64,000 nucleotides of DNA from Eubacteriales bacterium (GCA_045588245.1 JAZNDW010000011.1:66271-130270), one strand, 5' to 3'; counted from the first letter of the stretch, positions 1,573 to 21,892 are shown. The notes: generated from the sequence alone by a model not told the origin. A program made the numbers and translations.

Positions 1573-2922
1573 TCATTCAGCTTCAGGTCTATCAACAGTA
1601 CCTGCAGCATAAACTTCAAATTCGAACAGACCCATACCGCGGATGGCGGGATCCTGCGGTGCGCCCTCAGCCGTTGTATCTCCGCCGCCGTCAACGTATT
1701 CCTGATACGTTTCGAATCCGTACGTTGCAGCTTCGTCGTCGGTGAACTTAATGAGAGTTACCTGGATCGACGTCGTCGTTACAGCGTCGAAGAAGGTCTG
1801 ATTCATAACGTCGTCAGCAACCTCGTAGCCTTCGCCGTTCTTAACGTCAACGTATTCGCCGTTTTCGTCAAGATACTGGATCGTGTAAGCCGCAGCGGAA
1901 TGGATGCCGCCGTTTTCAAGCCAATACTGACGAGTATCCTTATCCTGCCAGAAGAATAGACCAATACCGTCAACGGTCACAGCCTCATCCCATTCGTAGG
2001 AGATAGTTTCCGTCGTGCCTGCCATGCTCCATGAGCCGTATGCAGTGCCGCCGGACGATGCAAGATAAGTAGCATCGGGCCACAGACCGTCGTTAATAGA
2101 GCCGGGAGTTTCCCAGGAAGCACAGGAAGGAGCGTTGACCGTCGCCTTAGGAGCGATAGACTTGCTGTACTCATACTCTTCGTTGAAGAGCGAGAAGCGT
2201 TTCGTGCCGTCTACATAAACGTCTATAACTTCACGTTCTACCGTAACGCCGACAGACACCCATTCTCCTATAGCGATAGGCGAATAAACAGTCGGTGCCA
2301 ATGAAGTTTCCTCGCCGTTTACGACCTGATAGCACTCAACTTCGTTACCGGCAGATTTGCCGATGTAAAGAACGCAGTAATTATTAGCATCCGCTACGCA
2401 GAAATAAAGCTTGATAACGGTTTCTTCATCAACAGCATAGACCTTAGCCGTGTACTGATAATAGTTCCATTCAGCCTCGCCAATGTACGCCATCGAGCCT
2501 GCGGCAGACGTCATAAGAGCGTGATTGGGTTCCTCTTCGTCCTCATCCTCGGTGGGATCAACAGCGATCGACCAATCAGCATCAGCCCCTGCTCCGTACG
2601 TAAACGCGGGCATCTCACCCTCAAGCTTGTCGCTATAGAGCTCTCTTCTGTCAGCCTGCTTCGAGAGAACCTTGATATCGTCAAAGTATGCCGTACCGGA
2701 CTCTGCGCCAACGCCGATCATGCCGCCGTATTTACCGTCGGGATCGGGAGTGTAATAATCGTCACCGGGATCGTCCGTGTTTCCGCCGCCTTCAGTTTCA
2801 CCGTCGGTTTCCGCATCGGTGCCTGTGCCCGTACCGTCGATCGGAAGCTCAGGGCCGTCATCGCAAGCAACGAGCGTTACGAGCATCATTGCTGCAAGTA
2901 AAAGTGCAAATAACTTTTTCAT
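1573..2922 (-). CDS. Lipoprotein with a beta-sandwich (DUF1080/LamG-like) domain and a discoidin/F5-8-like domain, probably carbohydrate-binding
   Basis: Lipobox LVAC, acidic linker, GMIGVG...YFDDIKV and W.SVGVTV....IDVYVDG, then SINDG...W...ISYEWDEAVTVDGIGLFFWQD; AAGGAG RBS. Confidence 0.65.
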   Translation of the reverse strand: MKKLFALLLAAMMLVTLVACDDGPELPIDGTGTGTDAETDGETEGGGNTDDPGDDYYTPDPDGKYGGMIGVGAESGTAYFDDIKVLSKQADRRELYSDKLEGEMPAFTYGAGADADWSIAVDPTEDEDEEEPNHALMTSAAGSMAYIGEAEWNYYQYTAKVYAVDEETVIKLYFCVADANNYCVLYIGKSAGNEVECYQVVNGEETSLAPTVYSPIAIGEWVSVGVTVEREVIDVYVDGTKRFSLFNEEYEYSKSIAPKATVNAPSCASWETPGSINDGLWPDATYLASSGGTAYGSWSMAGTTETISYEWDEAVTVDGIGLFFWQDKDTRQYWLENGGIHSAAAYTIQYLDENGEYVDVKNGEGYEVADDVMNQTFFDAVTTTSIQVTLIKFTDDEAATYGFETYQEYVDGGGDTTAEGAPQDPAIRGMGLFEFEVYAAGTVDRPEAE

Positions 2923-3063
2923 AATCGAATCTCCTTTTATTTAAGGTATCGGATATCTTTACATTATATGATATCTATATACAGTATACCACAAAAGAAC
3001 CGTCCGTTTCAACACGTTTATTAACATTTTATCAACAATTTACTGTCTAAAGCGCTCATAAAC

Positions 3064-3093
3064 AAAAAAACGCTCCCTATTGGGAGCGTTTTT
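3064..3093 (-). terminator. Rho-independent terminator of APQTG gene 1
   Basis: AAAAAAA-CGCTCCC-tatt-GGGAGCG-TTTTT hairpin just downstream of the 3109 stop. Confidence 0.85.
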
Positions 3094-3108
3094 ATTGCGT
3101 TTTAAGAA

Positions 3109-3894
3109 TTAGTGCTTCTTGGAAACGATGTAAGCGCCGGAGCCGAGAGCTACGATTGCGAGAGCGATCGTTGCGAAACCGGTCTGAGGAGCTTCAACAG
3201 CATCGAGAGCAGTAGCTACTTCATCAGCGGAAAGAGCTGTGTTGTAAACAGCAACAGTGTCAACGGACGTGCCATCAGCATATTCGCCACCTGCCCAGTT
3301 TGCCTTACCGATCTTGAGAGTAGGAGTTTCGCCAACGCAGTTTGCAATTGCAAAGCGTCCTTCCTCGTATCCAGCTTCTGTTGTGGGGTCATACTCGCCA
3401 AAGAGTGCGCCGTCAACATATACGGTTGTCTTTTCATCAGCAGAGAATACGCAAACAACTTCGTGCCATTCGTCAGCAGCGAACGCGCCGCTAACAGATC
3501 CCATACGACCGTTATGGTAGCGTTCTACAACGAGGCTTCCGTTATAAAGAGCGCCGAGGTAAGATTCGGGAGTGCCGCCGTTGAGCCAAGAGCCGTGCTC
3601 TTCCTGAGAGGTGATTTCAAACGCCCAGTTAGGAGAGGTAGCAGGGAACTTAACCTTGAATGCAACGGTCACTTCGGTAACACCTGCGAGGTCAATCTCT
3701 GCTTCGAGCCAAGACTGTGCGCCGAAAGTAGCAACGCCGTCAGCGATCGTAACGTTGTCTCCGTTCGTTGTAAGACCGTTTTCATCGTCAAACGTGTAGT
3801 ACGCAATCTGTCCTTCGGGAGCAGCTGCGGATGTAGCGGTAGCGAAGCAAGAAAGCATAATAACTACCATCACAAGAGAGAGAATCTTTTTCAT
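3109..3894 (-). CDS. Secreted, cell-surface-anchored protein with a LamG/concanavalin-A-like domain and an APQTG sorting signal (array gene 1)
   Basis: Signal peptide MKKILSLVMVVIMLSCFATATSA; IAYYTFDD, WHEVVCVF...VYVDG, LKIGKANW, VAVYNTALSADEV (LamG-like); C-terminus APQTG-FATIALAIVALGSGAYIVSKKH. Confidence 0.8.
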   Translation of the reverse strand: MKKILSLVMVVIMLSCFATATSAAAPEGQIAYYTFDDENGLTTNGDNVTIADGVATFGAQSWLEAEIDLAGVTEVTVAFKVKFPATSPNWAFEITSQEEHGSWLNGGTPESYLGALYNGSLVVERYHNGRMGSVSGAFAADEWHEVVCVFSADEKTTVYVDGALFGEYDPTTEAGYEEGRFAIANCVGETPTLKIGKANWAGGEYADGTSVDTVAVYNTALSADEVATALDAVEAPQTGFATIALAIVALGSGAYIVSKKH

Positions 3895-3946
3895 GATTTT
3901 TCCTCCAAAAAAATTAAAATGTGGCTGGTAACCAAATCATAATAGT

Positions 3947-3975
3947 ATTTTATCATTTTCCAGCACAATTGTCAA
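3947..3975 (-). promoter_or_regulatory. Sigma-A promoter of APQTG gene 1
   Basis: The minus strand reads TTGACA-17 nt-TAAAAT. Homologous promoters precede gene 2 (TTGACA-17-TACAAT, about 4996-5024) and gene 3 (TTGACA-17-TATACT, about 6007-6035). Confidence 0.75.
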
Positions 3976-4042
3976 CACGTTTTTTACCGTTTAGTCACAG
4001 TTTTTTCACATTTCGCACTCTGCATTCCGTATTCAAAAAAAC

Positions 4043-4068
4043 AAAAAAACGCTCCCTATTGGGAGCGT
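4043..4068 (-). terminator. Rho-independent terminator of APQTG gene 2
   Basis: Same CGCTCCC-tatt-GGGAGCG hairpin and A-tract as at 3064-3093. Confidence 0.8.
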
Positions 4069-4087
4069 GTTTATTGCGTTTTAAGAA

Positions 4088-4942
4088 TTAGTGCTTCTTG
4101 GAAACGATGTAAGCGCCGGAGCCGAGAGCTACGATTGCGAGAGCGATCGTTGCGAAACCGGTCTGAGGAGCCTTTTCCTGCATTGTGGAAATAACTACAT
4201 TGTCAACAGTAACGTTGAGCGGGTAGTCGCCGTAGTGTGTAGCACCGATTGTAACGAGCATTTCATCGGTGAGGAAGTTAGCGATTTCGGGGTTGTTGGG
4301 AAGACCGATGTCTACGCCATCAACGAGGATCTGAATCGTTGCGCCGGTTTCAGTGGGAAGAACGATGTATTCTACTGCAACTGTAGCTGTAGGAGTTTCG
4401 TCAGAAACGAGGTCTTCAGCAACGTCACCGCCCCAAACAACATTGTTGCCTGTTGCGCCTTCGCCGAGATCACCGGTGTGAGCCTGGAAGTGCTTACCGT
4501 TACCCTTGAGATTGAGGTAGTATGCATCGAAGGAGTGCTCGAATTCTTCGCCGGAAAGAGCGAGGAACTCAGCGGACTTACCGTCTGCATTGAAGATGGA
4601 AGCGATACCCTGGAACCAAGGCTGTCCGCCGATCTTAGTTGCATCGAGTGTAACGTCCATTGTGACCTTGATACCGTTTGTAGCATCGATAACTTCGTCT
4701 ACAACAAAGCCTGCGGTACCCATAACGTATGCGCCGTCAACAACGCTGGCGGAAACGTCAGCTGCTGCTGCATTGCAAAGAAGGTCGTTGTTCGGCCAGC
4801 TTGCTGTGAAGCCCTTGAGGCCGTCTGCGTTGCTGAAATCAAAGCTTGCTACTTCAACAAATTCCATTTCAGCTGCGGATGTAGCGGTAGCGAAGCAAGA
4901 AAGCATAATAACTACCATTACAAGAGAGAGAATCTTTTTCAT
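4088..4942 (-). CDS. Secreted, cell-surface-anchored protein with an uncharacterised beta-rich domain and an APQTG sorting signal (array gene 2)
   Basis: Start moved to ATG 4942 (GGAGG RBS). Signal peptide and APQTG-TM-KKH tail are identical to gene 1; the middle is not alignable by eye. Confidence 0.8.
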   Translation of the reverse strand: MKKILSLVMVVIMLSCFATATSAAEMEFVEVASFDFSNADGLKGFTASWPNNDLLCNAAAADVSASVVDGAYVMGTAGFVVDEVIDATNGIKVTMDVTLDATKIGGQPWFQGIASIFNADGKSAEFLALSGEEFEHSFDAYYLNLKGNGKHFQAHTGDLGEGATGNNVVWGGDVAEDLVSDETPTATVAVEYIVLPTETGATIQILVDGVDIGLPNNPEIANFLTDEMLVTIGATHYGDYPLNVTVDNVVISTMQEKAPQTGFATIALAIVALGSGAYIVSKKH

Positions 4943-5070
4943 GATTTTTCCTCCAAAAAAAATAAAAATGTGGCTGTTAACCAAATCATAACGATATTGT
5001 AGCATTTTACAGCACAATTGTCAACACGTCTTTTACCGTTTTGTCACAGTTTTTTAATATTACACACCGC

Positions 5071-5207
5071 ACTACAAAATGCAGAATGCAAAATGCAGAA
5101 CGAAGGTAGCTTTTCGCTGCAGCGAAAAGCTACCTTATAAAATCCAAAAATTACACCGCAATTTTTGTTCCGGAATTCTTAATTCTGCATTCTGTACTAT
5201 GCATTCA
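5071..5207. repeat. MITE/REP-like intergenic element: inverted 7-bp periodic arms around a perfect 34-bp palindrome
   Basis: Left arm AAATGCAGAATGCAAAATGCAGAA, right arm AATTCTGCATTCTGTACTATGCATT, palindrome AAGGTAGCTTTTCGCTG|CAGCGAAAAGCTACCTT at 5103-5136. Confidence 0.65.
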
Positions 5208-5213
5208 AAAACG

Positions 5214-5241
5214 AAAAAAGCTCCAGATTGGGAGCTTTTTT
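5214..5241 (-). terminator. Rho-independent terminator of APQTG gene 3
   Basis: AAAAAAGCTCC-agattg-GGAGCTTTTTT. Confidence 0.8.
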
Positions 5242-5252
5242 GTTTTTATCGC

Positions 5253-5957
5253 TTAGTGCTTCTTGGAAACGATGTAAGCGCCGGAGCCGATAGCTACGAT
5301 TGCAAGAGCGATCGTTGCAAAACCGGTCTGAGGAGCGTCGCCTTCGTTGCCGCCTTCGGGAGCGTTAACGCCGTCGTGCTCGTCAACAACGGTGATAGTC
5401 ATTTCTGTACCTGTATCACCGGTGAAGAATACATAGCAGCCTGCGCTGAGGTCTTCAGCGTTCATTTCCCAACCGCTTACGACTTCAGTGCCATCAGCAG
5501 CAAGAATAGCGTACTCATAAACAACTTTGTTGCCTTCTCTGGTAATTGTGATATCATAGTCAGCGCCTGCCCAGAAAGCTGCATAATCTGTGATTCCCAG
5601 GTCATTAATATTGTCGCCGGTATGAGCGCAGTTGCCCTTATCATATTCCGTAGCCCAGCCGTGCGGGTCAGTACGAAGAACTGCATACTCTACATAACCT
5701 TCAGCGGTATGAGGAGCCTCAACGCCATCAGTAAGGCAGTTGATGAATACAGCGTTAACGCTGTTCCAAACGTTTGTGCCGCCTGCTACGAGATCAATGT
5801 CGAACTTAAGTGTAGCGCCGTCTGCGATTTCATGCGATGCAGACCAATCATCCCACCAGCCCGGATTGATAACTGTTTCGGACTCAGCAGCGAATGCAGA
5901 GATTGCCATTACAGCGAGCATAGCTACTGCGATAGCAACAACAAGAATCTTTTTCAT
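5253..5957 (-). CDS. Secreted, cell-surface-anchored protein with an uncharacterised domain and an APQTG sorting signal (array gene 3)
   Basis: ATG 5957 after GGAGG; signal peptide MKKILVVAIAVAMLAVMAISAFA; tail APQTG-FATIALAIVAIGSGAYIVSKKH. Confidence 0.8.
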   Translation of the reverse strand: MKKILVVAIAVAMLAVMAISAFAAESETVINPGWWDDWSASHEIADGATLKFDIDLVAGGTNVWNSVNAVFINCLTDGVEAPHTAEGYVEYAVLRTDPHGWATEYDKGNCAHTGDNINDLGITDYAAFWAGADYDITITREGNKVVYEYAILAADGTEVVSGWEMNAEDLSAGCYVFFTGDTGTEMTITVVDEHDGVNAPEGGNEGDAPQTGFATIALAIVAIGSGAYIVSKKH

Positions 5958-6054
5958 GAAAAATTCCTCCAAAAATTTTTTTGCGATATTTTCATATCAT
6001 ATTTCAAGTATAACGCATGAAAACTACAATGTCAACACATTTTCAACGGTTTCG

Positions 6055-7986
6055 TCACGTTTTTTTCACATTTTGCACTCTGCATTCTGCACTCTTCATC
6101 CTCACCGTTACCCGAAACAGATCCGCATCTGATGTAACCGTCAAAGTTCCTCCCTGAAGCTCGACAAAGCTCTTTGCGATCGACAGCCCGAGCCCCGAGC
6201 CCTCCGTATGACGTGATTCGTCACCGCGCACGAATCTCTCCGTCAACTCATCCGCGCCACGCATCAACGGTTCACGCGATATGTTGGACAACGTCACCGT
6301 TGCCACACCGTCCGCCTCTGCGAGTGTAAAATAAACTCTCGAGCCGGGCAGCGAATACTTCACGACGTTACTCATAAGATTATCAAACACACGCCACATC
6401 AGCTTGCCGTCCGCCATGATCGTGACGGGATGCTCGGGCACGTTGACAATGAGGTGCAGTCCCGCCGCCGTCAATTTTTCTTCATACTCTCCCGCCGCTT
6501 GTCCGACGAGGATTCCGAGCTCACACGGCTTTGCATCGACTGTGACAACGCCGGACGATGCCTTTGATGCCGTGACGAGGTCCTCGGTCAGCTTTTTCAG
6601 TTTCGCCGCCTGTCTGTCGAGAACTTCAATATATCCTTTTGCGTCCTCGTTTTCAATGTCGCATTTTTTTAGCAGATCAACGTAGCTTATGATCGATGTG
6701 ATCGGCGTTTTGATGTCGTGCGACACGTTTGTGATAAGCTCCGTTTTGAATCTTTCGCCACGCATTCGCTCCTCGACCGCAAGTGCCATTCCGTCACCGA
6801 TGCTGTTGAGATTTTCCGCGTGCTCTCGGAAATCAAACAGCAGATATTGCGTGTCTATTTTATAATCAAGGTCGCCCTTCGATATGCGCTGCGCCCCCGT
6901 CTTAAGACGGGTCATGTTCCATCCCGCATAGCACGCACCGGTGATAACGACCGCCCAGAAGATAAAGAACATTACCGCACCGATGTCGTCATGGGACGAA
7001 ATGATCCCCGCAATAACGAAACTTACGGCAAACATCCCCGTGAACGTCAAGAGCGTGCGCCAGAAGAACGGTATCGTACGGATCACACGCACCGCGAGCT
7101 TCGCTGCCTTGACAGCAAAGCGCCACATATATCCGAGAAGCCTTTGCATGAGCTTCAACAGACGCGTAATAACATTATTACTAATGAAGGTTTTCGTCAT
7201 GATACGAACCTTTGCCGTCATCGACAAGAGCGTTATGATGATCGAATCGACGAACGCATAAACGCAAATCAAAGTCGCCACGAAGACGTCGCCTATGTCG
7301 CAGTTGTATTCGTATATCATAATTTCGGCAATCACAGCAAAAAACGCGGCGACAGCTATAATATCGAGCGGTACCTTGTCAAACATCGTCATAACGTAGC
7401 CCTCGCTCTCGCGGCGCTTGCCCGCCGCCGAAAGCGCAAACAGCCAACACAAAAACGACAACAGCGCCGACACAGCACAGATAACGATAATCCAGTATCT
7501 TATACTGTGAAGCACGGGGATCCATTCTTCGGCGACGACAAACGGATCGACATATTTTTTGCTCGCATGGACGTAAAACGTCACCGAATACTCGCCGTCG
7601 TTACTGTCAAGCACGGGTATCCTCTTTATGTTTTCGCTTTGCGGAGCATGTCCCGCATAGCTTTTATATACCGCTACGCCGTCTCGTCTTAACTCAAAGT
7701 CAAGATTCTTCTCATATATCACCGCCATCATATTCTGCTTCGCCTCGGCCTGCGACGTATCCCCGAAAACGTAACCAGTTCGATACGCATCCGCAATACG
7801 GTAAGCGTAGCCGTAGAGTATCCCGTCAATATATGATTCTTTTGCTTCGTCAAGCTCATATGAATAGAGCTCCAGCTCGTATATGAGCGCGATACCGAAA
7901 CCGGACACGGCGGCTAAGAAGAGCGTCAGCGCGGCGAGCAGCACCGCCGTGATGCGAGCGCCTTTACTGCATTCCAGTTTTTTCAT
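6055..7986 (-). CDS. Multi-TM sensor histidine kinase (HisKA + HATPase)
   Basis: ELITNVSHDIKTP H-box, VFDNLMSNVVKYS N-box, EGSGLGLSIAKS G-box; start moved to ATG 7986 after GAAAGGA. Confidence 0.92.
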   Translation of the reverse strand: MKKLECSKGARITAVLLAALTLFLAAVSGFGIALIYELELYSYELDEAKESYIDGILYGYAYRIADAYRTGYVFGDTSQAEAKQNMMAVIYEKNLDFELRRDGVAVYKSYAGHAPQSENIKRIPVLDSNDGEYSVTFYVHASKKYVDPFVVAEEWIPVLHSIRYWIIVICAVSALLSFLCWLFALSAAGKRRESEGYVMTMFDKVPLDIIAVAAFFAVIAEIMIYEYNCDIGDVFVATLICVYAFVDSIIITLLSMTAKVRIMTKTFISNNVITRLLKLMQRLLGYMWRFAVKAAKLAVRVIRTIPFFWRTLLTFTGMFAVSFVIAGIISSHDDIGAVMFFIFWAVVITGACYAGWNMTRLKTGAQRISKGDLDYKIDTQYLLFDFREHAENLNSIGDGMALAVEERMRGERFKTELITNVSHDIKTPITSIISYVDLLKKCDIENEDAKGYIEVLDRQAAKLKKLTEDLVTASKASSGVVTVDAKPCELGILVGQAAGEYEEKLTAAGLHLIVNVPEHPVTIMADGKLMWRVFDNLMSNVVKYSLPGSRVYFTLAEADGVATVTLSNISREPLMRGADELTERFVRGDESRHTEGSGLGLSIAKSFVELQGGTLTVTSDADLFRVTVRMKSAECRVQNVKKT

Positions 7987-8027
7987 AATTGCGTTTTTCC
8001 TTTCATTTATTAGAATATGGACCGGCA

Positions 8028-8732
8028 TCAGATGTCCACGACGCTCGACAGCTTATAGCCCTGCCCCCATACGACGCGGAAATAGCGCGGCTCGGACGGA
8101 TCGTATTCGATCTTCTCGCGCAAGTGACGTATGTGAACGGCGATCGTCCCCTCGCCGCCCATATATCCGCCGCCCCAAACGGAATTGTATATCCGCTTCG
8201 GCGTCAGCAGCTCGTCCGGATGCGTCAGAAACAGCTTCAGTATCTCGTATTCGGTCGGCGTAAGATTAACGCCTTCGCCGTCACGGGTAACTGTGTGAGA
8301 TTTATCGTCCATTACGATCCCGGCGACACTGTATATCTTATCATCGGGCTTGGTGACGTTTCCGCCGAGCTCTATATACCGCCGCAGATTGGCGCGCACG
8401 CGCGCCGTCACAACGGCGGGATTGAACGGCTTCGTTATGTAATCGTCCGCACCGAGATTCAACCCGACTATCTTGTCCGTTTCTTCGCTTTTCGCCGTGA
8501 GAAGCAGAATGGGCACGTTTGAAAACTCACGCAAGCGCTTCATTGTGTGCAGTCCGTCCACAACGGGCATCATTATGTCCAGCAAAACGAGATGTATGTC
8601 CTCGCTTTTCACAATGCGGAGAGCTTCTTCTCCGTTGTAGGCTTTATAAACCGAGCACCCCTCTGCCGCCAAATATATTTCGAGCGCCGCGACAATGTCA
8701 TATTCATCGTCACAAACAAGAATGTTATACAT
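8028..8732 (-). CDS. OmpR/PhoB-family response regulator
   Basis: ILVCDDE, LLDIMMP, LTAKS, GADDYITKPF, VHIRHLREKIE, VWGQGYK; start moved to ATG 8732 (GGAGG RBS). Confidence 0.95.
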   Translation of the reverse strand: MYNILVCDDEYDIVAALEIYLAAEGCSVYKAYNGEEALRIVKSEDIHLVLLDIMMPVVDGLHTMKRLREFSNVPILLLTAKSEETDKIVGLNLGADDYITKPFNPAVVTARVRANLRRYIELGGNVTKPDDKIYSVAGIVMDDKSHTVTRDGEGVNLTPTEYEILKLFLTHPDELLTPKRIYNSVWGGGYMGGEGTIAVHIRHLREKIEYDPSEPRYFRVVWGQGYKLSSVVDI

Positions 8733-8802
8733 AAAGTTCCTCCGCAATCGTTTCATACCCGAATTGTACCACAAAAAAGTTTAAGAAAAAACAGTATATC
8801 CC

Positions 8803-8911: not shown

Positions 8912-8984
8912 AGTCAACCATACGTACACAAATATGCGCTAAAATTTACTCGCATAATTATCATGTAAATACTTGGAGGTATTT

Positions 8985-10436
8985 ATGAAAAAATTTTTAA
9001 GCTTACTGCTCGTACTTCTCATGATTGCAGTACCGCTTGCAGCATGCACGGATTCTCCCGATGACGGCGAGGGTACGGGCGACGCAGCCGGCACAGGCAA
9101 CACGGAAACCGAAGCAGACTCCGGCGCTCTTGACAAGCTCGAGATTCCGGATTCCGACTTTGAGGAACTTGAATTCATCGTCCTCACTCCCGAAGTAGTT
9201 ACTTATAACTACACAATGACTGACTTTGACGAGCCCTCCGACGACATGTATGAGAACGCACTTTACGAGCGTAACCTCGCTGTTGAAGAACTCCTCAACG
9301 TTAAGATCACCGAAGTTACCGGCGGTATCGGTTCTGACGTTTACAACCTCTTCAAGACGTCTGTAGAAGCGAACACGGGTGACTACGACGTCTGCTTCAA
9401 CCAGATGGAATACTCCTGCACCGCAACAGGCGCAGGCCTCTGCTATGACATTGACAGCTTCGAATATATCGATCTTGACAAGTCCTGGTGGAACGATGAC
9501 TGTACAGAACAGCTCGCTCTCGGCGGCATGCACTACATGCTCGCAGGCGATATCGCTCTTTCCGATAAGGAATGCATCTGGGCTGTATACTTCATCAAGG
9601 AACTCATCGAATCCAACAACCTCGAAGATCCTTACACCCTCGTAAAGAACAACCAGTGGACATGGGATAAGATGCACGAAATGGCTAAGACAGCTACATA
9701 TGATGAAAACGGAAGCGGCTCTCTCGACTCCGGTGACATCTACGGTTTCGTAACTCACAGCGAAAACTTCGCTGCAAGCTGGGAAGCTGCCGGTCTTACT
9801 CTTGCATCCCTTGATAAAGATGGAATGCCCCAGGTTAACTGGAACTCCGAACAGTTCGTTAACGTATTCGCTGACATCGTTGAACTCATGAACGATACAG
9901 AAAACGTTAACTGGACATCCACAGCTACAGTTTCCGACGCTGTTGCTCACATCACAACTTGCCTTAAGGAAGGTAAGACTCTCTTCGGAACGGAAGTTAT
10001 CGCATTCGTACGTGACTACCGTGAAAACGAAAAAGACTTCGGTATTCTTCCTTACCCCAAGTACAACTCCGACGTTGAAGATTACAACTCCTACATCGCA
10101 GTTAACTCCTGCGTTATGACGATCGGTAACAACTGCCCCGACACATACACAACTTCCATCATCGTTGAAGCTCTCGCAGCTAAGGGCGCAGCTATCCTTA
10201 CACCCGCTTACTACGAAGGTCAGCTCAAGTCCCGTTACTCCCGCGATGAAGAGTCCGGCGAAATGCTCGACATCATCTTCCAGCATCGTTGCTACGACCT
10301 CGGCGTATTCTTCAACTGGGGCGGCGCATTCGGTTCTCTCAAGAGCGTAACAGCTAACCCCGCTACTCTCTACGCACAGGTACAGAAGCAGATCGGCAAG
10401 CAGATTGAAAAGGCATTCGAAAAACTCGGTCTTTAA
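8985..10436 (+). CDS. Extracellular solute-binding lipoprotein (family-1/sugar-type SBP), paralog A
   Basis: GGAGG RBS, lipobox LAAC, YERNLAVEELLNVKI, YIDLDKSWW, WTWDKM, DFGILPYPKY, YYE..LKSRYSRDEES.EMLDII. Confidence 0.85.
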   Translation: MKKFLSLLLVLLMIAVPLAACTDSPDDGEGTGDAAGTGNTETEADSGALDKLEIPDSDFEELEFIVLTPEVVTYNYTMTDFDEPSDDMYENALYERNLAVEELLNVKITEVTGGIGSDVYNLFKTSVEANTGDYDVCFNQMEYSCTATGAGLCYDIDSFEYIDLDKSWWNDDCTEQLALGGMHYMLAGDIALSDKECIWAVYFIKELIESNNLEDPYTLVKNNQWTWDKMHEMAKTATYDENGSGSLDSGDIYGFVTHSENFAASWEAAGLTLASLDKDGMPQVNWNSEQFVNVFADIVELMNDTENVNWTSTATVSDAVAHITTCLKEGKTLFGTEVIAFVRDYRENEKDFGILPYPKYNSDVEDYNSYIAVNSCVMTIGNNCPDTYTTSIIVEALAAKGAAILTPAYYEGQLKSRYSRDEESGEMLDIIFQHRCYDLGVFFNWGGAFGSLKSVTANPATLYAQVQKQIGKQIEKAFEKLGL

Positions 10437-10659: not shown

Positions 10660-11223
10660 ATGAAAGACAGCGCGATAATAGATCTGTTTTTCGAGCGAAG
10701 CGACGTTGCCGTCAGGGAACTTGAGGCAAAATACGGTGTGAAAATGAAAAGTCACGCCGAACGTTATCTATCGGACAGACGCGACGCGGAAGAGGTGTAT
10801 AACGACACCCTCGTCGCGATATGGAACTCTATTCCTCCCGATCATCCGAACAAGCTGTTGACGTATATATTGGCAATTCTCGAGCACAAGGTCTTCGACA
10901 AGCTGAAATATCAGGCGAGTCAAAAACGTGCAAGCACAAAAGAAGCACTCTTTTCTGATTTTGACGACGTGGCAAAGCATATCGACAGGAGCGCCAGCGC
11001 CGAGGAGATCGTTATCAACCGCAAAAGCGGTGTGATAAACGAGTTTCTCTCATCCGAGACGGAATCGAGCAGGCGAATTTTCGTCAAACGCTACTACTAT
11101 GGCAAGTCCATTCCCGATATCGCACGCGAATCGGGAATGTCCGAAAACGCCGTTTATGCGAGAATATCAAGAACAAAGGCGCGGCTTTACAGCTATTTGC
11201 GTGATAAGGGGGTCATTATATGA
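10660..11223 (+). CDS. ECF-type RNA polymerase sigma-70 factor
   Basis: 187 aa; region 2 (DAEEVYNDTLVAIWNSIPP) and region 4 HTH (RRIFVKRYYYGKSIPDIARESGMSENAVYARISRTKARL). Confidence 0.9.
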   Translation: MKDSAIIDLFFERSDVAVRELEAKYGVKMKSHAERYLSDRRDAEEVYNDTLVAIWNSIPPDHPNKLLTYILAILEHKVFDKLKYQASQKRASTKEALFSDFDDVAKHIDRSASAEEIVINRKSGVINEFLSSETESSRRIFVKRYYYGKSIPDIARESGMSENAVYARISRTKARLYSYLRDKGVII

Positions 11224-12911
11224 GATTATCGGTTTATATGCAGGAAGAAATAAACGAGATCGACAGAAAGTATTTGCTCGAAGCGGCAGATACGACCAAG
11301 GATTCAACCTCCACCGCTTTATATTTGGTAAAGTCAAATGAATCATCCGTCAAGGATAAACTTAAAAACGTCATTTCCGTTGCCGCGAGCGTCGTTTTGG
11401 TTGCCGCTATCATCATTGCCTTTGTGCTGATGCGAAACAGTATCTCAACGCCGGGCGACAACGATCCGGCAGATTCCGCAAACAATACGGGCGGCGTGTA
11501 CGACTCCACCGATACCGACAGATCCGACGGAGCCTCAGACTCAGCCGACTCAAACGATACTACCGATGTCGTCGCTCCCGACGACACAACGCTTCCCGAC
11601 GATACGACGACCAACGGCAACGAAAACAACGACATCTACACAACAGACCTCGTCGGATACGAGTTCGTCATCATTTCACCCTTCGCAAGCGAGAATCTGA
11701 ACTACAGCATCAATGATTTTGATGAGCTTACCGACGATATTTACGAGTATGCCATCTACAGCCGCAACCGCACCGTTGAGGAGCTGTTGAACGTCACGAT
11801 CACGGAAGTGAGGGCGTCAGACGGACTCGGAGTTTTCGATCTGTTACAAACGTCCGTCAACGCAGGTGCAGGTGACTACGACCTCTGCTTCAATAGCATG
11901 CGCTACTCCGTTATGTCCGCAGGCTATAACCATTATTATGACCTCTGCGATCTATCGTACATCGATCTTGACAAATCGTGGTGGAATTCCGATGCCGTCG
12001 AACAGCTTTCGTTTTTCGGCAAAACACCGCTCGTTGCAGGCGATATCTCAATGTCCGACAAGGAAGGTCTTTGGGCGATGTACTATAACAAAGACATTCT
12101 CGCGACGCTTTCCGCAGACGATCCGTACGAGCTCGTTCTCCGTGACGAATGGATGTGGGACAAAATGCACGCGATGGCAGCCGATATAACCGCCAACGGT
12201 GACGTTGCCGGCTTCATCACAACTCCCGGAAACATAGCCGCAAGCTGGACTTCAGCGCAGCAAAAGCTTATCTCAACCGACAAGAACGGCGCGCCGACCG
12301 TTTCCTTCGGGACTGATGTTTTCTCGATGATATTTGAGGATATACGCGATATTATGGACAGCGATTCCACCTCTGTCATCTATTTTGATGGTTCCGAAGG
12401 CATCATTTCCATCGACGCCGTTGACGCATTCGCCGATGGCGATGCGCTCTTCACTTCAACGACGCTTTCCTTCGCACGCTATCTGAGAAACAAGGACGTC
12501 AACTTCGGCATCGTCCCATATCCCAAATACGATGCCGATTCCAAATGGTACGGCTCTCACGTCACAAAGTACTCAAACGTCATGGGAATCCCGACCGACT
12601 GCTCGGATACTTACGCGGCAAGCATCATAACCGAGGCTCTTGCCGCTAAAGGAGCCGAATATATCACGCCCGCATATTACGAAGCTCTCACCACATCTGC
12701 GTCGGCGCGTGACGAGCAGTCTGCGACGATGCTTGATATGATCTTCCGTAACCGTTCGTATGACATCGGCGTATTCCTCAATTATAACGACGTTTGCTCC
12801 GATCTGATGAAAAAGAGCAACTCCGCTCCTCTCGATCTTTATAACGATAATCACGAATCGATCAATGAGCAGCTCGAATCTTCATTTTCCGCTCTGCGCA
12901 GCCTCGGTTGA
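11220..12911 (+). CDS. Putative anti-sigma factor: short cytoplasmic N-terminus, one TM helix, D/T/S linker and a full SBP domain
   Basis: ATGA overlap with the sigma gene; N-terminal INEIDRKYLLEA; TM VISVAASVVLVAAIIIAFVLM; no lipobox; the C-terminal ~420 aa align by eye with paralogs A and B (YSRNRTVEELLNVTI, YIDLDKSWW, NFGIVPYPKY). Confidence 0.75.
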   Translation: MRLSVYMQEEINEIDRKYLLEAADTTKDSTSTALYLVKSNESSVKDKLKNVISVAASVVLVAAIIIAFVLMRNSISTPGDNDPADSANNTGGVYDSTDTDRSDGASDSADSNDTTDVVAPDDTTLPDDTTTNGNENNDIYTTDLVGYEFVIISPFASENLNYSINDFDELTDDIYEYAIYSRNRTVEELLNVTITEVRASDGLGVFDLLQTSVNAGAGDYDLCFNSMRYSVMSAGYNHYYDLCDLSYIDLDKSWWNSDAVEQLSFFGKTPLVAGDISMSDKEGLWAMYYNKDILATLSADDPYELVLRDEWMWDKMHAMAADITANGDVAGFITTPGNIAASWTSAQQKLISTDKNGAPTVSFGTDVFSMIFEDIRDIMDSDSTSVIYFDGSEGIISIDAVDAFADGDALFTSTTLSFARYLRNKDVNFGIVPYPKYDADSKWYGSHVTKYSNVMGIPTDCSDTYAASIITEALAAKGAEYITPAYYEALTTSASARDEQSATMLDMIFRNRSYDIGVFLNYNDVCSDLMKKSNSAPLDLYNDNHESINEQLESSFSALRSLG

Positions 12912-13097: not shown

Positions 13098-14540
13098 ATG
13101 AAAAAAATCTTATGTTTACTGTTGGTTCTGCTCATGATCGCCGTTCCGCTCGCAGCTTGCACCGATCCCGCTGACAACGGAGAAGGAACAAAAGACGCCG
13201 CCAACACCGGAACCGGCGACGAAACAGGAAACGAAACCGAAAACGCCGAAGACAAGATCCTTGAGATCCCCGACGAAAAATTCGAAGACGAAGAGTTCGT
13301 TATCCTCACTCCCGATGTTCTTACATACAACTTTGCTATGTGTGACTTCGACGAGCCCTCCGACGACGCATACGAAAATGCGATCTACGAGCGCAACCTC
13401 GCCGTTGAAGATATGCTCGGCATTACAATCAGCGAAGTTTCCGCTACGCTCGGCTCTGCCGTATACGAGCTTTTCAAGACGTCCGTTGACGCAAACACCG
13501 ACGACTACGACATCTGCTTTAACAGCATGGACTATTCCGCATCCGCCGTCGGTGCAGGATATTGCTACACTATCGATGATTTCGCATACATCAATCTCGA
13601 CAAGGCATGGTGGAACGATGACTGTACAAATCAGCTCGCGCTCGGCGGTCAGCACTATATGGTCGCAGGCGACATCGCTCTTTCCGACAAGGAGTGCATT
13701 TGGTGCGTATACTTCACCAAGTCGCTGATCGAGGCTCACGGCCTTGAGAATCCCTACGATCTCGTTGCCAACAACACATGGACATGGGATAAAATGCACG
13801 AGATGGGCCGCGAAACAATGTATGACGAAAACGGAAACGGCACACCCGAATATTCAGTAGATACGTTCGGTATTTCCGGACACAGCGAAAACTATCCCGC
13901 ATTCTGGGAGTCCGCAGGCTTGAAGCTCGTTGACCTTGACGACGAAGGTATTCCCGTTCTCACATGGGGTACAGAACAGTTCGTCAACGCATTTGAGGAT
14001 ATCGTAGTTATCATGGGCGACACCGAATGCTACAACGATGATAACCAGGTTCCGCTTATCTTCAAGGACGGAAGAACCCTCTTCGCAACGGAAGTTATCG
14101 CGCACGCTCGCAGCTTCCGCGAAAACGATGAAGATTTCGGTATCGTTCCCTTCCCGAAGTACACTTCCGACATCGACCGTTACTACTCCTACATCGCAGT
14201 TTCTTCCTGCGTTTTGACGATCGGCAACAACTGTCCCGACACATATAAGACCGGTATTATCGTTGAAGCTCTCGCAGCAAAGGGAAATCAGATCCTCACC
14301 CCCGCTTATTACGAAGGTCAGCTCAAGTCCCGTTACTCTCGCGATGAAGAGTCCGGAGAAATGCTCGATATCATCTTCCAGCAGCGTTGCTACGACCTCG
14401 GCGTATTCTTCAACTGGGGTTCCGCTTACACGACGCTCAAATCCGTTGACGCTAACCCCGCAACTCTGTACGCACAGCTCCAGAAGGCTATGAACAAGGC
14501 TATCGAAAAGAGCCTTGATAAGCTTTCTATCTTCGGATAA
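13098..14540 (+). CDS. Extracellular solute-binding lipoprotein, paralog B
   Basis: GGAGG RBS, lipobox LAAC, colinear with and highly similar to 8985-10436; extended -10 TGTTATAAT at 13042-13050. Confidence 0.85.
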   Translation: MKKILCLLLVLLMIAVPLAACTDPADNGEGTKDAANTGTGDETGNETENAEDKILEIPDEKFEDEEFVILTPDVLTYNFAMCDFDEPSDDAYENAIYERNLAVEDMLGITISEVSATLGSAVYELFKTSVDANTDDYDICFNSMDYSASAVGAGYCYTIDDFAYINLDKAWWNDDCTNQLALGGQHYMVAGDIALSDKECIWCVYFTKSLIEAHGLENPYDLVANNTWTWDKMHEMGRETMYDENGNGTPEYSVDTFGISGHSENYPAFWESAGLKLVDLDDEGIPVLTWGTEQFVNAFEDIVVIMGDTECYNDDNQVPLIFKDGRTLFATEVIAHARSFRENDEDFGIVPFPKYTSDIDRYYSYIAVSSCVLTIGNNCPDTYKTGIIVEALAAKGNQILTPAYYEGQLKSRYSRDEESGEMLDIIFQQRCYDLGVFFNWGSAYTTLKSVDANPATLYAQLQKAMNKAIEKSLDKLSIFG

Positions 14541-17627: not shown

Positions 17628-19946
17628 TTATTCTGTATAGAACGTCTTATAATTTGAATAAACGATGTTATAAACGCCGTCGTTGCAATAATCATTGTTG
17701 TAGATGTACTCGCCGTTTGCGTTCACGGCTTTGACCTCAACGCAGTTGACACCGTTTTCGTTAAGGCAGGAATTGTCAAGTGTCACCGTTGCGACACCGT
17801 CAACGATGTCAGAGGTGATTACAGTCGTTCCGTTCACCTGGAACGTCACTTTTTTCGACTTTGACACAGAGCAGGATGCGGTAATGACTGTTTGGGTTTC
17901 ACCCACCGACACGTCCGTCACCTTGATTTTGCCGTACGTCTGATAGTATCCGAGCGAATCAATGAGCGTTTCCATAGATTCAAACTGTTCGTCTAGCCAA
18001 TCAACGCGAGTCTCGATAAATTCGATCATGCTCGCAACGGCGTCATCGTATTCCTCGCCCTTATAGGACTTGTACGTTTTGCGCCATCTGTTGTCGTTTG
18101 CAAGCGCCGAGATACGGAGATCCTCCACGTACATGTCGATCGTTCCGCCGTCTTTTATCATGTCTTCGATCAATGTGTCGCGCACTTCATGGTAGCGTTC
18201 ATATACGAGCGCCAAAAAGTACGGGTCTCTTATAAGCATACGGTTCCACTGCACCTTCTGATAATACTGCTCTACCGTGAAAGCGTCCTCGGTTGTGTGC
18301 CACGATTCGGGGTAGTACGTATTGATGTTATACATATTGATGTTGCCCCACGCCCAGTCGAAGTCCCACTGCGGTGCGATATAAGCTTTGCCGTCAACAT
18401 CTTTATAGTAGAAGAAGCTGTTCTTCATGCTGTCCCAGTTCATGGCAAACTCGCAGAAAATGAAGTTGTTCACAAGGCTGTCCATGTCGAAGAAATCGGA
18501 GTAATGCCAGCCGTCGTGAGCTGTGTCGCGGTAGCTTGCGATATTGTACGAATATCCGTAGTTGTCGGTAGCGTCGGGTTCTTCAAAGTCTCCCCAACCG
18601 CCGCCCCAGCCGCTGCCCCAGCCGCCACCCCAGCCGGGACGTCCGCCCCAATTCATGTTGCCTGTTGCCTCATAATGGGTATCGGATGAACGGAAGAAGA
18701 AATCGTCGCTGTGAAGCGCATATTCGAAGCTCTGCATGAATTTGTATGCAGATTCGTAAAGCTCGGTGTCCTCAAACGAATCGGCGGCAGACTGAGTTCC
18801 CTGACCGATATCGCTGAAATAAAGCGGCTGTCTGTACGCAGATTCAAGACGCGACAGCGTGGAATCATCTCTGCTGTAAAAGTCCATCTCGATGATGTAT
18901 CCTCCCGTACGCTCGGGGAGCGTCACGCCAAATTCTTCAAACGTGTACGTCTTTTTGTTATATTTGAACTCACCGCTGTCGACCCAGCTCCAATCGGATA
19001 CAAGTGTGTCCTCAATCTCGATAGCCTTAGCTTCGTATTCCTCCGAGGTGACCTCTCCGTCATCGCGCAGTTTCTTTGCGAGTGCCAAAGCGACGTCCTC
19101 CGCCGCGTCGGACCAATCGTAAATATCAATACGGGAGTTGTCGATGCGTATCTGTTCGCAAAGCTGATATACACCGTAGTACTCGCCATTATAGATAAGC
19201 ACGACGTTTTCGCTCTTCGTGTAATACTCGGTTCCAAGCGCGCCCGAGAAGTCGTAAAGAAGCTTGTTTCTCATAAGAGTATGGTCGATGGCGTTTGCCA
19301 AAAGCACCCAATGGCGGCTCTTGCCGTCTGCCATGTCGAGCATATTCTCTTTCGTTTCAAGCTTCAGCTTGAACGGACGCTTATCAAGATTCGCCGTTGA
19401 GTTTCCTCGTAAACGAAGCTGTGCCGCACCCTCGTATAAGCCTTTTACTGTCGTTGAGTTGCCTTGCATCGTGAGCGCAACGTCGACGTATTCATTCTTT
19501 GATATCGCCTTATACTTCGCCTCGCCCGAAAAATAAAGCACGGGTAGCTCGCTACAGTAGATCATAAGATCATCGTATCCGTCAACGGATACGGTGATCA
19601 TCGATTCAAGGTCGCTTCTCTCGGGGGTATACGCTCCCGTCGTGTCCTCGAAGGTTTCAACCTCGTCGTTCGTCATGTGGGTTATGGTCCACGTATACGT
19701 TACTCCGTCGGGATAACCGTAGCAGGTGAGCGGAACGCCTACCTTGGCAAAGGAATTGAGAAAGCACACCGTATCGGGTGGAACCTGCTCCGGTGTGAGC
19801 ACGCCGTCCGACGTCGTTTCCTCGGGGACGTATATAACGTCTGTTTCGGTATCGCCGCCGTTCGCATCGTCACCGCAGGCAACGAAAGAAAAAAGGAACA
19901 ATGTCAACAGCAAAAGTGCCGCTGACTTAACAAATACGGAAGACAT
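17628..19946 (-). CDS. CotH kinase-family lipoprotein
   Basis: Lipobox FVAC; LRGNST...KRPFKLKL, WVLLAN..DHTLMRN, NGEYYGVYQLCEQI, NWDSMKNSFFYYK, APQWDFDWAWGN. Confidence 0.88.
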   Translation of the reverse strand: MSSVFVKSAALLLLTLFLFSFVACGDDANGGDTETDVIYVPEETTSDGVLTPEQVPPDTVCFLNSFAKVGVPLTCYGYPDGVTYTWTITHMTNDEVETFEDTTGAYTPERSDLESMITVSVDGYDDLMIYCSELPVLYFSGEAKYKAISKNEYVDVALTMQGNSTTVKGLYEGAAQLRLRGNSTANLDKRPFKLKLETKENMLDMADGKSRHWVLLANAIDHTLMRNKLLYDFSGALGTEYYTKSENVVLIYNGEYYGVYQLCEQIRIDNSRIDIYDWSDAAEDVALALAKKLRDDGEVTSEEYEAKAIEIEDTLVSDWSWVDSGEFKYNKKTYTFEEFGVTLPERTGGYIIEMDFYSRDDSTLSRLESAYRQPLYFSDIGQGTQSAADSFEDTELYESAYKFMQSFEYALHSDDFFFRSSDTHYEATGNMNWGGRPGWGGGWGSGWGGGWGDFEEPDATDNYGYSYNIASYRDTAHDGWHYSDFFDMDSLVNNFIFCEFAMNWDSMKNSFFYYKDVDGKAYIAPQWDFDWAWGNINMYNINTYYPESWHTTEDAFTVEQYYQKVQWNRMLIRDPYFLALVYERYHEVRDTLIEDMIKDGGTIDMYVEDLRISALANDNRWRKTYKSYKGEEYDDAVASMIEFIETRVDWLDEQFESMETLIDSLGYYQTYGKIKVTDVSVGETQTVITASCSVSKSKKVTFQVNGTTVITSDIVDGVATVTLDNSCLNENGVNCVEVKAVNANGEYIYNNDYCNDGVYNIVYSNYKTFYTE

Positions 19947-19971: not shown

Positions 19972-21015
19972 TTATTCGCAAAGGGATTTGAACGTCACCC
20001 AAGCCTCCATGTGAGCTTCTTCAGCGTCGCCGCCGATCGTTCCGATCATCTCAGAGCTTTCCGCGGTCACACCTGCGGGAAGCGTCAGGAAGCTCTTATA
20101 GTCTTCGTTAATGTATGCTTCGGATGCAGAATATGTGCAGTAATATCCGAGATGCTCAAAGCACTTCGCTCCGCGTTCAGCATCGAGGATATAGTCAAGG
20201 AACTTATATGCCGCCTCCGCGTTCGGAGCATCGGACGGAATGAATCCCGCCATAATGCCAAGACCTATTCCCTCCTCGGGATATACGACCTCGAGCGACG
20301 GATTTGTCAGCTTCGCCAGCGTTACCTGCGATGTATACATAACGGCAACGGAAACCTCGCCGGAGATAAGATCGTCCTGAAGGTTATCGTCCTTGATAAG
20401 ACGCACATTCGGTGCAAGCTCCGCAAGCTTTTCTCCCGCTGCTTTGATCGTGGCGGCATCCTCGGTGTTGTAGCTTTCGCCCATCACCTTGAGTGCCATA
20501 CCGTTGATAACACGGTAGTTAGCGATCATTCCGATGCTGTCCGCCAGGGAAGGATCCCAAAGATCGGCGTAACCGTTGATCTCAACCGACACCTTTGCGG
20601 GGTCATATACGATCGTCTGAACGCCTGCTCCGTAAGGAACGGTGTATTCATTCTTCGGATCGAAGAACTGGCTTTGATATATAGGGTTGATGTTACCGTA
20701 ATTTTCAAGCTTTCCGGCGTCGAGCTTCTGAACGAGCCCTTCCGCGATAGCGGTTTCTATGATGTAGTCGTCAGCGATAACAAGGTCGTATCCGCCGCCC
20801 TTCGTTTCCTCTAACTTTGCAAGCATCGTTTCATCATAATCAAAATTTTCGTATCTGACCGTGATGCCCGTTTCTTTTTCAAAGCCGTCAATGATCTCGT
20901 CGGGGAACATTCCCTCCCACGTGTAGAGCGTGAGTACCTCTCCCTCTTCCGAGCATCCCGAAAGGATGGGCAGGCACAGCATAAGCGCAAGCACAATAAT
21001 CAATGTTTTTTTCAT
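19972..21015 (-). CDS. potD: Spermidine/putrescine ABC transporter substrate-binding lipoprotein
   Basis: LYTWEG...FEKETGI, ETMLAKL..GYDLV, FDPKNEYTVPY; last gene of the pot operon. Confidence 0.88.
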   Translation of the reverse strand: MKKTLIIVLALMLCLPILSGCSEEGEVLTLYTWEGMFPDEIIDGFEKETGITVRYENFDYDETMLAKLEETKGGGYDLVIADDYIIETAIAEGLVQKLDAGKLENYGNINPIYQSQFFDPKNEYTVPYGAGVQTIVYDPAKVSVEINGYADLWDPSLADSIGMIANYRVINGMALKVMGESYNTEDAATIKAAGEKLAELAPNVRLIKDDNLQDDLISGEVSVAVMYTSQVTLAKLTNPSLEVVYPEEGIGLGIMAGFIPSDAPNAEAAYKFLDYILDAERGAKCFEHLGYYCTYSASEAYINEDYKSFLTLPAGVTAESSEMIGTIGGDAEEAHMEAWVTFKSLCE

Positions 21016-21836: not shown

Positions 21837-21892
21837 TTTTTCACTCCTTTCACGCGATATTTTACATTTGACTATATTATTTTAGGCAGCTG

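Follow-up and report, generated by a model that had tools for sequence, protein, structure and literature searches.

Near-identical ends and different lectin-like middles in a genus-specific family of sortase-type surface protein genes from an uncultured member of the Eubacteriales

Three complete genes (g1, g2 and g3), detected by an open reading frame (ORF) scan, lie in tandem on the minus strand at positions 2900-6200 of a 64,000-nucleotide stretch of DNA from a Eubacteriales bacterium (GCA_045588245.1, JAZNDW010000011.1:66271-130270), hereafter the window. Each encodes a secreted, C-terminally anchored protein, in which a signal peptide and an anchor enclose a middle part (hereafter the passenger) that differs from gene to gene. 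We think that these genes probably belong to a genus-specific family of independently transcribed cassettes for lectin-like surface proteins, and that the ends of the cassettes have been homogenised by homologous recombination, accompanied by some gain, loss and exchange of cassettes. The genome that holds the window (G000) is a metagenome-assembled genome (MAG) of 43 contigs that is 98% complete by markers. An earlier reading of the window's sequence alone, here called the original prediction, had proposed a modular display system in which passengers are swapped by recombination between constant flanks.

Shared ends and separate transcription signals

The 3' constant block, which consists of the codons for APQTG-FATIALAIVALGSGAYIV-SKKH, the stop codon and the terminator, lies at 3060..3192 in g1 and at 4039-4171 in g2 (minus strand, as are all cassette features below). 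The two copies were 99% identical in a repeat search, with 131/132 bases equal between 3061-3192 and 4040-4171. A third copy, in g3 at 5204-5336, was 75% identical without gaps, and 117 of 128 bases agreed when gaps were allowed; in the anchor-coding DNA itself, 81/84 bases were equal between g1 and g3 (3109-3192 vs 5253-5336). The 5' constant block contains the signal-peptide codons, the ribosome-binding site, the 5' leader and the promoter, and occupies 3822..4034 in g1 and 4870-5083 in g2. Its copies agree at 191/211 aligned bases and are 98% identical over the first 98 nt; 118 of 121 aligned bases are equal between 3822-3942 and 4870-4991 (1 gap letter), as are 44/46 bases of the promoter blocks (3961-4006 vs 5010-5055). 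The signal-peptide DNA of g3 is just 67% identical over 72 nt, and upstream of g3 the common part is confined to the promoter region at about 5996-6094 (83% over 65 nt). Because of their length, the matches between the blocks are not due to chance.

Between g1 and g2, this identity breaks off after the ...TSAA codons and restarts at the APQTG codons. The passenger DNAs of the three genes gave no collinear blastn alignment, only scattered matches of at most 40 nt, the best of which had an E-value of 0.004 (17 nt), and a BLASTP comparison of the three passenger proteins with each other found nothing better than E 4.3. The original prediction had described all of this, namely the shared blocks, the sharp borders at the signal-peptidase site and at APQTG, the middles that do not align, and a third gene with common anchor DNA and promoter layout but a different signal peptide. 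Its numerical statements were all reproduced here, the borders being read from the sequence itself, and the modular build of signal peptide, passenger and anchor that it recognised likewise stands.

The analysis also bore out its claim that each gene has its own promoter and terminator. The g1 promoter (TTGACA-17 nt-TAAAAT, 3947..3975) is sigma-70-like and matches 11/12 consensus positions, as do the promoters of g2 (TTGACA / TACAAT, 4996-5024) and g3 (TTGACA / TATACT, 6007-6035), the last of which overlaps the 3' end of a histidine kinase gene. A GGAGG ribosome-binding site stands in front of each gene, and a hairpin followed by a T run lies behind each (3066..3093 for g1, 4049-4068 for g2 and 5214-5241 for g3). 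A search of 2800-6300 against Rfam gave nothing at the gathering score; the matches were terminator look-alikes. The effective number of codons (ENC) was 36.5 for g1 and 33.8 for g2, which correspond to the 3rd and 1st percentile of 877 long ORFs; given this codon bias and the promoter match, high expression of both genes is probable. Between the g3 terminator and the g2 promoter, at 5103-5136, we also observed a perfect 34-nt palindrome (17 + 17, no spacer), which is unique in the genome and could be an operator or an extra hairpin.

Sorting signals, sortases and passengers

The 5' block encodes a Sec-type signal peptide, MKKILSLVMVVIMLSCFATATSA-A. By inspection, all three N-termini consist of MKKIL and 15-17 hydrophobic residues followed by TSA-A or AFA-A, so that each cassette protein would be exported by way of its Sec signal peptide. 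The C-termini of the three proteins are tripartite, with APQTG, then FATIALAIVALGSGAYIVS (19 hydrophobic residues) and then KKH, and the layout of the 3' block reads as that of a sortase sorting signal. A heuristic pattern search of G000 found 18 ORFs with an xPQTG tail, and in all 18 a start preceded by a Shine-Dalgarno sequence is followed by a hydrophobic stretch. The constant ends are thus export and sorting signals of the usual kind for sortase-type surface proteins, rather than the special display scaffold that had originally been envisaged.

The anchor variant of the locus, ...TGFATIALAIVA.GSGAYIVSKKH, was found in every one of the 19 genomes of the genus. A count of the anchor block across these relatives, a check suggested with the original prediction, gave 82 matches at E<=0.01, most of which lie in open reading frames 230-370 aa long. 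There was no match at E<=1e-4 in 119 genomes from 96 other genera of the same family, and by its sequence the anchor is a genus-specific type. For family-wide comparisons we used 72 anchored proteins from 18 genomes, a sample and not a census. The T-G pair was kept in 70 of these 72 tails, and the other two read APQTS.

G000 contains three sortase-type genes. One, on contig C28, encodes a class B sortase (223 bits, above the cut-off of 153.75); a class-B-like gene on C25 falls just below the same cut-off (148.4 bits), and the third, on C1, encodes a class C sortase (258 bits, cut-off 160). Class B sortase matches at E<=0.001 occur in 19/19 genomes of the genus and exceed the cut-off in 13/19. 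Purified SrtB, the single class B sortase of Clostridioides difficile, is reported to cleave SPKTG, PPKTG, SPSTG and SPQTG between T and G (PMC4155245). We consider it most likely that a class B sortase likewise cuts APQTG between T and G and links the cassette proteins to peptidoglycan.

Several observations weigh against this assignment. No sortase gene adjoins the cassette locus, and the tails of g1-g3 scored below the cut-offs of the nearest curated NCBIfam models, at 12.1-16.3 bits with Rumino_NPXTG (cut-off 23.5) and 13.1-14.4 bits with srtB_sig_QVPTGV (TIGR03065, cut-off 21.35), and did not match the LPXTG anchor model. In addition, the motif proline is replaced in relatives within the 72-tail sample (AAQTG, ASQTG, ATQTG, PAQTG), and among the peptides given in the report on C. 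difficile SrtB, NVQTG was not cleaved in vitro (PMC4155245). Since models this short are lineage-specific, the low tag scores make membership in the named subfamilies less probable and are no case against a sortase-like mechanism. In view of these scores and of the variable proline, we speak of sortase-type anchored proteins, for which processing is inferred.

Two further groups of sorting signals were seen in G000. At about 29750-34000 of C1, the class C sortase gene stands beside two ORFs ending in LPSTG and PPKTG sorting signals, and together they probably make up a pilus locus of the sortase-assembled type. The other group is a second anchored subfamily, with MKKLLTLATLILMLSLTLV... as signal peptide and a tail that reads APQTGFTTA.YAAVA...KKRR; its genes lie at C4:61-864, C4:36759-37517, C11:132598-133425 (2.3 kb past the end of the window) and C28:256-1083; two of its passengers are 67% identical to each other. 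The position of all four genes at the ends of contigs suggests that the assembly is broken by their repeated ends.

The passengers between these ends fall into three types. That of g1 (gene 3109..3894, 261 aa; passenger 3193-3822) is a Laminin_G_3 (LamG), ConA-like domain (Pfam PF13385, E 3.8e-12, 47 bits against a cut-off of 27.6), and each of the six homologue clusters that we found also carries PF13385. The passengers of g2 and g3 have no Pfam match. A search of 5.8 billion clusters gave only seven homologue clusters for g2 (gene 4088..4942, 284 aa; passenger 4172-4870), of which the AlphaFold2 model is predicted to be a ConA-like jelly roll. Its Foldseek matches in the PDB are PL7 alginate lyases, GH16 glucanases, legume lectins and galectins, with E-values of 8e-7 to 3e-4 and template modelling (TM) scores of 0.3-0.45. 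The g3 passenger (gene 5253..5957, 234 aa; passenger 5337-5885) is an unnamed domain marked by WW..W and R.D..GWG, and 101 representatives at E<=1e-3 were found among 1.84 billion, many of them in large multi-domain proteins or lipoproteins. Its model (mean predicted local distance difference test score, pLDDT, of 83; core about 96) is a galectin-like beta-sandwich: the best VIA-align matches are to galectin carbohydrate-recognition domains, with Z 8.0-8.8 and a root-mean-square deviation of 3.0-3.9 Å over 116-137 residues, and SPRY and CBM66 are also among them. In ten large homologues that we scanned, the g3-type domain is accompanied by Laminin_G_3 in six, Big_2 in two and GH43 in one. Six proteins of other bacteria (P0019, P0024, P0027, P0030, P0033 and P0047) thus have the g3-type domain fused to Laminin_G_3, while at the locus the two domains occur in the separate cassettes g3 and g1. 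The nearest ESM Atlas clusters (DUF6645, DUF6772, PelX_N and unnamed ones) are leads only and were not used.

With passenger-only alignments, hhalign gave a weak local match between g1 and g2 (probability 61%, E 8e-5, 62 columns) and no profile match of g3 to either of them. By sequence comparison the three middles belong to different families, and by predicted structure they appear to fall within one broad class of sugar-binding-type beta-sandwiches. The original description of the middles as unrelated is therefore right as to sequence family and too strong as to fold, given the ConA-like and galectin-like beta-sandwiches and the weak g1-g2 match. Glycan binding at the cell surface is likely to be their job. 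Two points count against the fold comparisons: the g2 model is of moderate confidence (mean pLDDT 64.7, predicted TM score 0.66), and the beta-sandwich to which every fold match points is a very common one, with Z-values of 8-9 in the range that the tool calls common.

BLASTP grouped the passengers of the 72 sampled proteins into 18 clusters. The largest of them is the g1 (LamG) type, which has 27 members from 15 genomes, and the g2 and g3 types have seven members in six genomes and five members in five genomes, respectively. Passenger dN/dS (the ratio of nonsynonymous to synonymous divergence) was 0.15-0.28, which indicates purifying selection. The passengers are thus not hypervariable, as they belong to a small set of conserved families under such selection.

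Histories of the ends and the passengers

We next turn to the relationship of the ends to the passengers in related genomes. Within a genome, the signal-peptide DNAs of g1 and g2 are 99% (G000), 96% (G009) and 92% (G014) identical. Between the g1 genes of G000 and G009, the signal-peptide DNA is only 60% identical, whereas the passenger is 90% identical over 627 nt; the signal peptides of G009 are closest to that of g3 in G000 (76-81%). The anchor DNAs of g1 and g2 in G000 are 100% identical, compared with 88% between G000 and G014 and 81-83% between G000 and G009. When the g1 genes of G000 and G009 were scanned with a 30-column sliding window, identity rose from 14-16/30 in the second half of the signal peptide to 26-30/30 from the first passenger codons, and fell back about 30 nt short of APQTG. 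The g3-type cassettes in the arrays of G005 and G007 match their LamG-type neighbours in signal peptide, motif variant and anchor, the motif variant in G007 being APATG. These patterns support different histories for ends and passengers, with breakpoints at the module borders, and agree with the original prediction in this respect.

Within G000, the synonymous divergence (dS) between g1 and g2 is 0.06 in the signal peptide and 0 in the anchor. Since the synonymous sites and the non-coding parts match as well, the near-identity of the ends is not due to selection at the protein level. The simplest mechanism would be gene conversion or unequal crossing-over between neighbouring copies of the family. 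Since conversion tracts end where homology ends, which here is at the signal-peptidase site on one side and the sorting motif on the other, this would account for the sharp borders.

Wider comparisons weigh against extending this to the whole genus. Over all sampled pairs, anchor identity was 0.70 for different-passenger pairs within a genome and 0.76 for same-passenger pairs across genomes. For cassettes with a neighbour of another passenger type, we compared the neighbour's end with the best same-passenger end elsewhere; the neighbour's anchor was closer in six, equal in eight and less close in one of 15 cassettes, and its signal peptide was closer in five, equal in two and less close in five of 12. 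Genus-wide concerted evolution of the ends is not supported by these counts and was dropped, and our claim is limited to neighbouring cassettes in some arrays.

We also considered that the three genes arose by plain recent tandem duplication followed by divergence, with the ends kept alike by selection on export and anchoring and the middles diverged beyond recognition. The weak g1-g2 profile match and the common beta-sandwich class of all three passengers would fit such an origin, and similar signal peptides and sorting signals are usual among sortase substrates. However, uniform divergence cannot yield the contrast between passengers that cannot be aligned and synonymous sites, leader, promoter and terminator that are 85-100% identical between g1 and g2; ordinary alignable paralogs, which would have spoken against the original prediction, were looked for and not found in this comparison. 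Furthermore, the ends group with array neighbours while the passengers group with orthologues, and the g3 passenger belongs to a widespread domain family of its own. We regard this origin as improbable.

The preferred reading, recombination between neighbouring family members, also involves the turnover of cassettes. In G000, the slot that contains them is bounded by the histidine kinase gene upstream (6055-8028, minus strand; Pfam HisKA and HATPase_c), which follows an OmpR-type response regulator gene (8028-8774, minus strand; Response_reg and Trans_reg_C), and on the other side by a gene for a 449-aa lipoprotein (1573..2922, minus strand). The order of response regulator, histidine kinase, cassette or cassettes and lipoprotein is kept in G014, G008, G012 and G001. 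The content of the slot varies: it is g3-g2-g1 in G000, g2-g1 in G014, and g2-g1 followed by the lipoprotein in G017 as far as the contig reaches. In G008, G012 and G001 it holds one other cassette, X (4854-5795 of L041, 6031-6939 of L042 and 1629-2366 of L043, respectively). Cassette X combines the signal peptide and the anchor of the family with a domain 42-47% identical to aa 255-441 of the neighbouring lipoprotein, the C-terminal domain of that protein, and its motif is APQTS in two of the three copies. It looks as if this domain was copied from the neighbouring lipoprotein into a cassette frame. In G009, G012 and G008, g1 and/or g2 genes occur at another locus. The gene on the right flank of the G009 locus adjoins the class B sortase gene on C28 in G000; the left flank does not, and that place carries no cassette.

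The g1 passenger also differs from its surroundings in divergence. Between G000 and G009, dS was 0.33 for the g1 passenger and 0.62 for that of g2, compared with 1.14 for a 487-aa lipoprotein gene of the window (partial), 1.22 for the response regulator, 1.99 for the histidine kinase and 2.39 for the 449-aa lipoprotein. Between G000 and G014, the values were 0.98 for g1, 0.69 for g2 and 1.32-2.28 for the flanking genes. In a maximum-likelihood tree of 27 LamG-type passengers, the g1 passengers of G000 and G009 are sisters with support of 99/99, in a clade with those of G014 and G017. Each of the four flanking proteins resembles its G014 counterpart at least as closely as its G009 counterpart, and DNA matches over 20 kb of the window are 68-88% identical with G009 and 72-83% with G014. 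It is therefore likely, though not proven, that at least the g1 passenger passed between the lineages of G000 and G009 fairly recently. Some points weigh against such a transfer. Part of the contrast in dS is no evidence of exchange, because the strong codon bias of g1 and g2 itself lowers dS; the 487-aa lipoprotein gene, which is equally biased (ENC 33.9), still stands at 1.14 between G000 and G009, and is the single bias-matched control. In addition, the gene order in G009 is inferred, because its contigs break at the repeated signal-peptide block.

On the preferred reading, the flanks can also serve as homology arms, by which cassettes are probably duplicated, lost, shifted from locus to locus and, in the case of g1 at least, passed from one species to another. 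In a more general form, the promoter and signal-peptide block and the anchor and terminator block might be portable homology arms through which lectin cassettes travel between loci and between species of the genus, in a manner reminiscent of capsule or M-type switching. The g1 passenger common to G000 and G009, with its low dS (0.33 vs 1.1-2.4 in the flanks), its other locus and its different ends, would be one such recent transfer. We put this forward tentatively, as a possibility that we judge less likely than not to hold in this general form.

A different explanation is a dedicated, programmed diversification system, such as a shufflon, pilin-type antigenic variation or polymorphic-toxin replacement, which would vary the exposure to phages or a host. 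It would account for the sharp module borders, the slot content that varies between species, the passenger dS below that of flanking genes, and the presence of one passenger type behind differing signal peptides and anchors. In G000, however, silent or promoterless copies are absent: each of the passenger DNAs is present a single time, and anchor blocks are confined to complete genes. There was also no sign in G000 of a silent cassette store or a switching device, although recombinase genes were not searched for. Each cassette carries a promoter and a terminator of its own, and because the repeats are direct, recombination between them would delete or duplicate cassettes and not switch their expression. 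Finally, the passengers are conserved over 5 to 15 genomes at the dN/dS values given above. For these reasons we think such a system unlikely. The proposal that passengers are swapped between constant flanks thus survives in so far as slot cassettes differ between species, and does not survive as a programmed diversity system; the comparison with polymorphic toxins does not fit, and the 18 passenger clusters of the 72-protein sample do not amount to a hypervariable repertoire.

That the identical blocks are joins or collapses of strains or loci by a metagenome assembler is very improbable: although all compared genomes, like the 43-contig G000, are MAGs, contigs of G009 and G017 end within these repeats, four contig ends of G000 are occupied by the second anchored subfamily, and reads were uninformative (from one run with 5% of sampled words, six short pieces of relatives were obtained, none with a junction), the order of histidine kinase, g2, g1 and lipoprotein recurs in the independently assembled G014 and in part (g2, g1 and lipoprotein) in G017, the stretches of identity are short (133 nt, and 98 nt at 98% or more), and unique sequence connects successive cassettes, the g3 promoter overlapping the unique 3' end of the kinase gene.

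Neighbouring genes, known systems and significance

A motif, GTGACnAAACnGTnnAAAnnGTGTTGACA, runs into the -35 box of the three promoters (3976-4004, 5025-5053 and 6036-6064, minus strand), and may be a site for the adjacent OmpR-type regulator. Within G000 it occurs at these three promoters only, even with up to four mismatches allowed, and it was not seen in six upstream regions of relatives that we read by eye. Because of this restriction, control of the cassettes by the adjacent two-component system stays speculation.

Three large ORFs beyond the regulator (8973-10436, 11220-12911 and 13098-14540) have no Pfam match at E<=1e-5. The first is the very strongly codon-biased gene for the 487-aa lipoprotein, which begins with a lipoprotein-type signal; without a Pfam match, its assignment as a solute-binding protein was dropped. 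G014 apparently carries this gene twice in tandem, and the start of the product of 11220-12911 is 43% identical to it over 163 aa. An ABC transporter operon (19972-23850) neighbours the gene for a 772-aa CotH kinase domain protein (17628-19946, minus strand; E 6.9e-34 for the domain).

Among known systems, the clostridial sortase-B-type substrates appear to be the closest in mechanism. As described for C. difficile (PMC4155245), the (S/P)PXTG substrates of SrtB resemble the present proteins in their signal peptide, xPxTG-type motif, hydrophobic span and basic tail, in the class B sortase gene of the genome, and in the unrelated passengers that bear a common tag. They differ in that the motif here is A-[PAST]-[QAV]-T-G followed by F/V-A-T instead of an acidic residue, and in that the tail here ends in KKH; the present anchor is genus-specific and scores below the curated sorting-signal cut-offs.

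In genetic behaviour, the closest parallel seems to be the mrp-emm-enn region of Streptococcus pyogenes, described as comprising up to three tandem, separately expressed genes for sortase-anchored M and M-like proteins, in which homologous recombination between neighbours generates chimeras and new family members (PMC9993116). Both systems thus have tandem sortase-anchored genes, related leader and wall-associated ends, and neighbours that recombine, or in our case appear to. The middles in S. pyogenes are homologous coiled coils under immune selection, whereas those found here, in the MAG of an uncultured commensal-type member of the Clostridia, are globular and lectin-like, belong to different families and are under purifying selection. 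The PEP-CTERM/exosortase systems and Rumino_NPXTG resemble the present family in placing a short C-terminal tag on many otherwise unrelated secreted proteins of one lineage. The comparison with PEP-CTERM made at the outset holds for the sorting tag as such and does not imply an exosortase-type system. Of the tag models, Rumino_NPXTG scores best with g1 and g2, yet remains under its cut-off, and the motif here starts with A and not N. In a narrow search of the open-access literature we found no description of a family of this kind in Lachnospiraceae-type bacteria, which does not establish its absence. What is new here is a genus-specific variant of sortase-type surface proteins that evolves by recombination at conserved ends.

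For annotation, the results indicate that near-identical gene ends can break MAG assemblies and that this anchor motif escapes the current curated models of sorting signals. For the organisms, they delimit in uncultured Clostridia a family of sortase-type surface proteins that is specific to one genus and whose members are small and probably abundant; three lectin-like passenger types can be distinguished in it, two of them without a family name. They also provide a clear case in which the ends for export and anchoring evolve in concert and the functional middles follow a history of their own, possibly a horizontal one. If the exchange of cassettes through their flanks is true, it would give gut commensals a way to swap surface glycan-binding modules, and each lineage could re-tool a highly expressed set of such proteins while leaving their export, anchoring and regulation unchanged.

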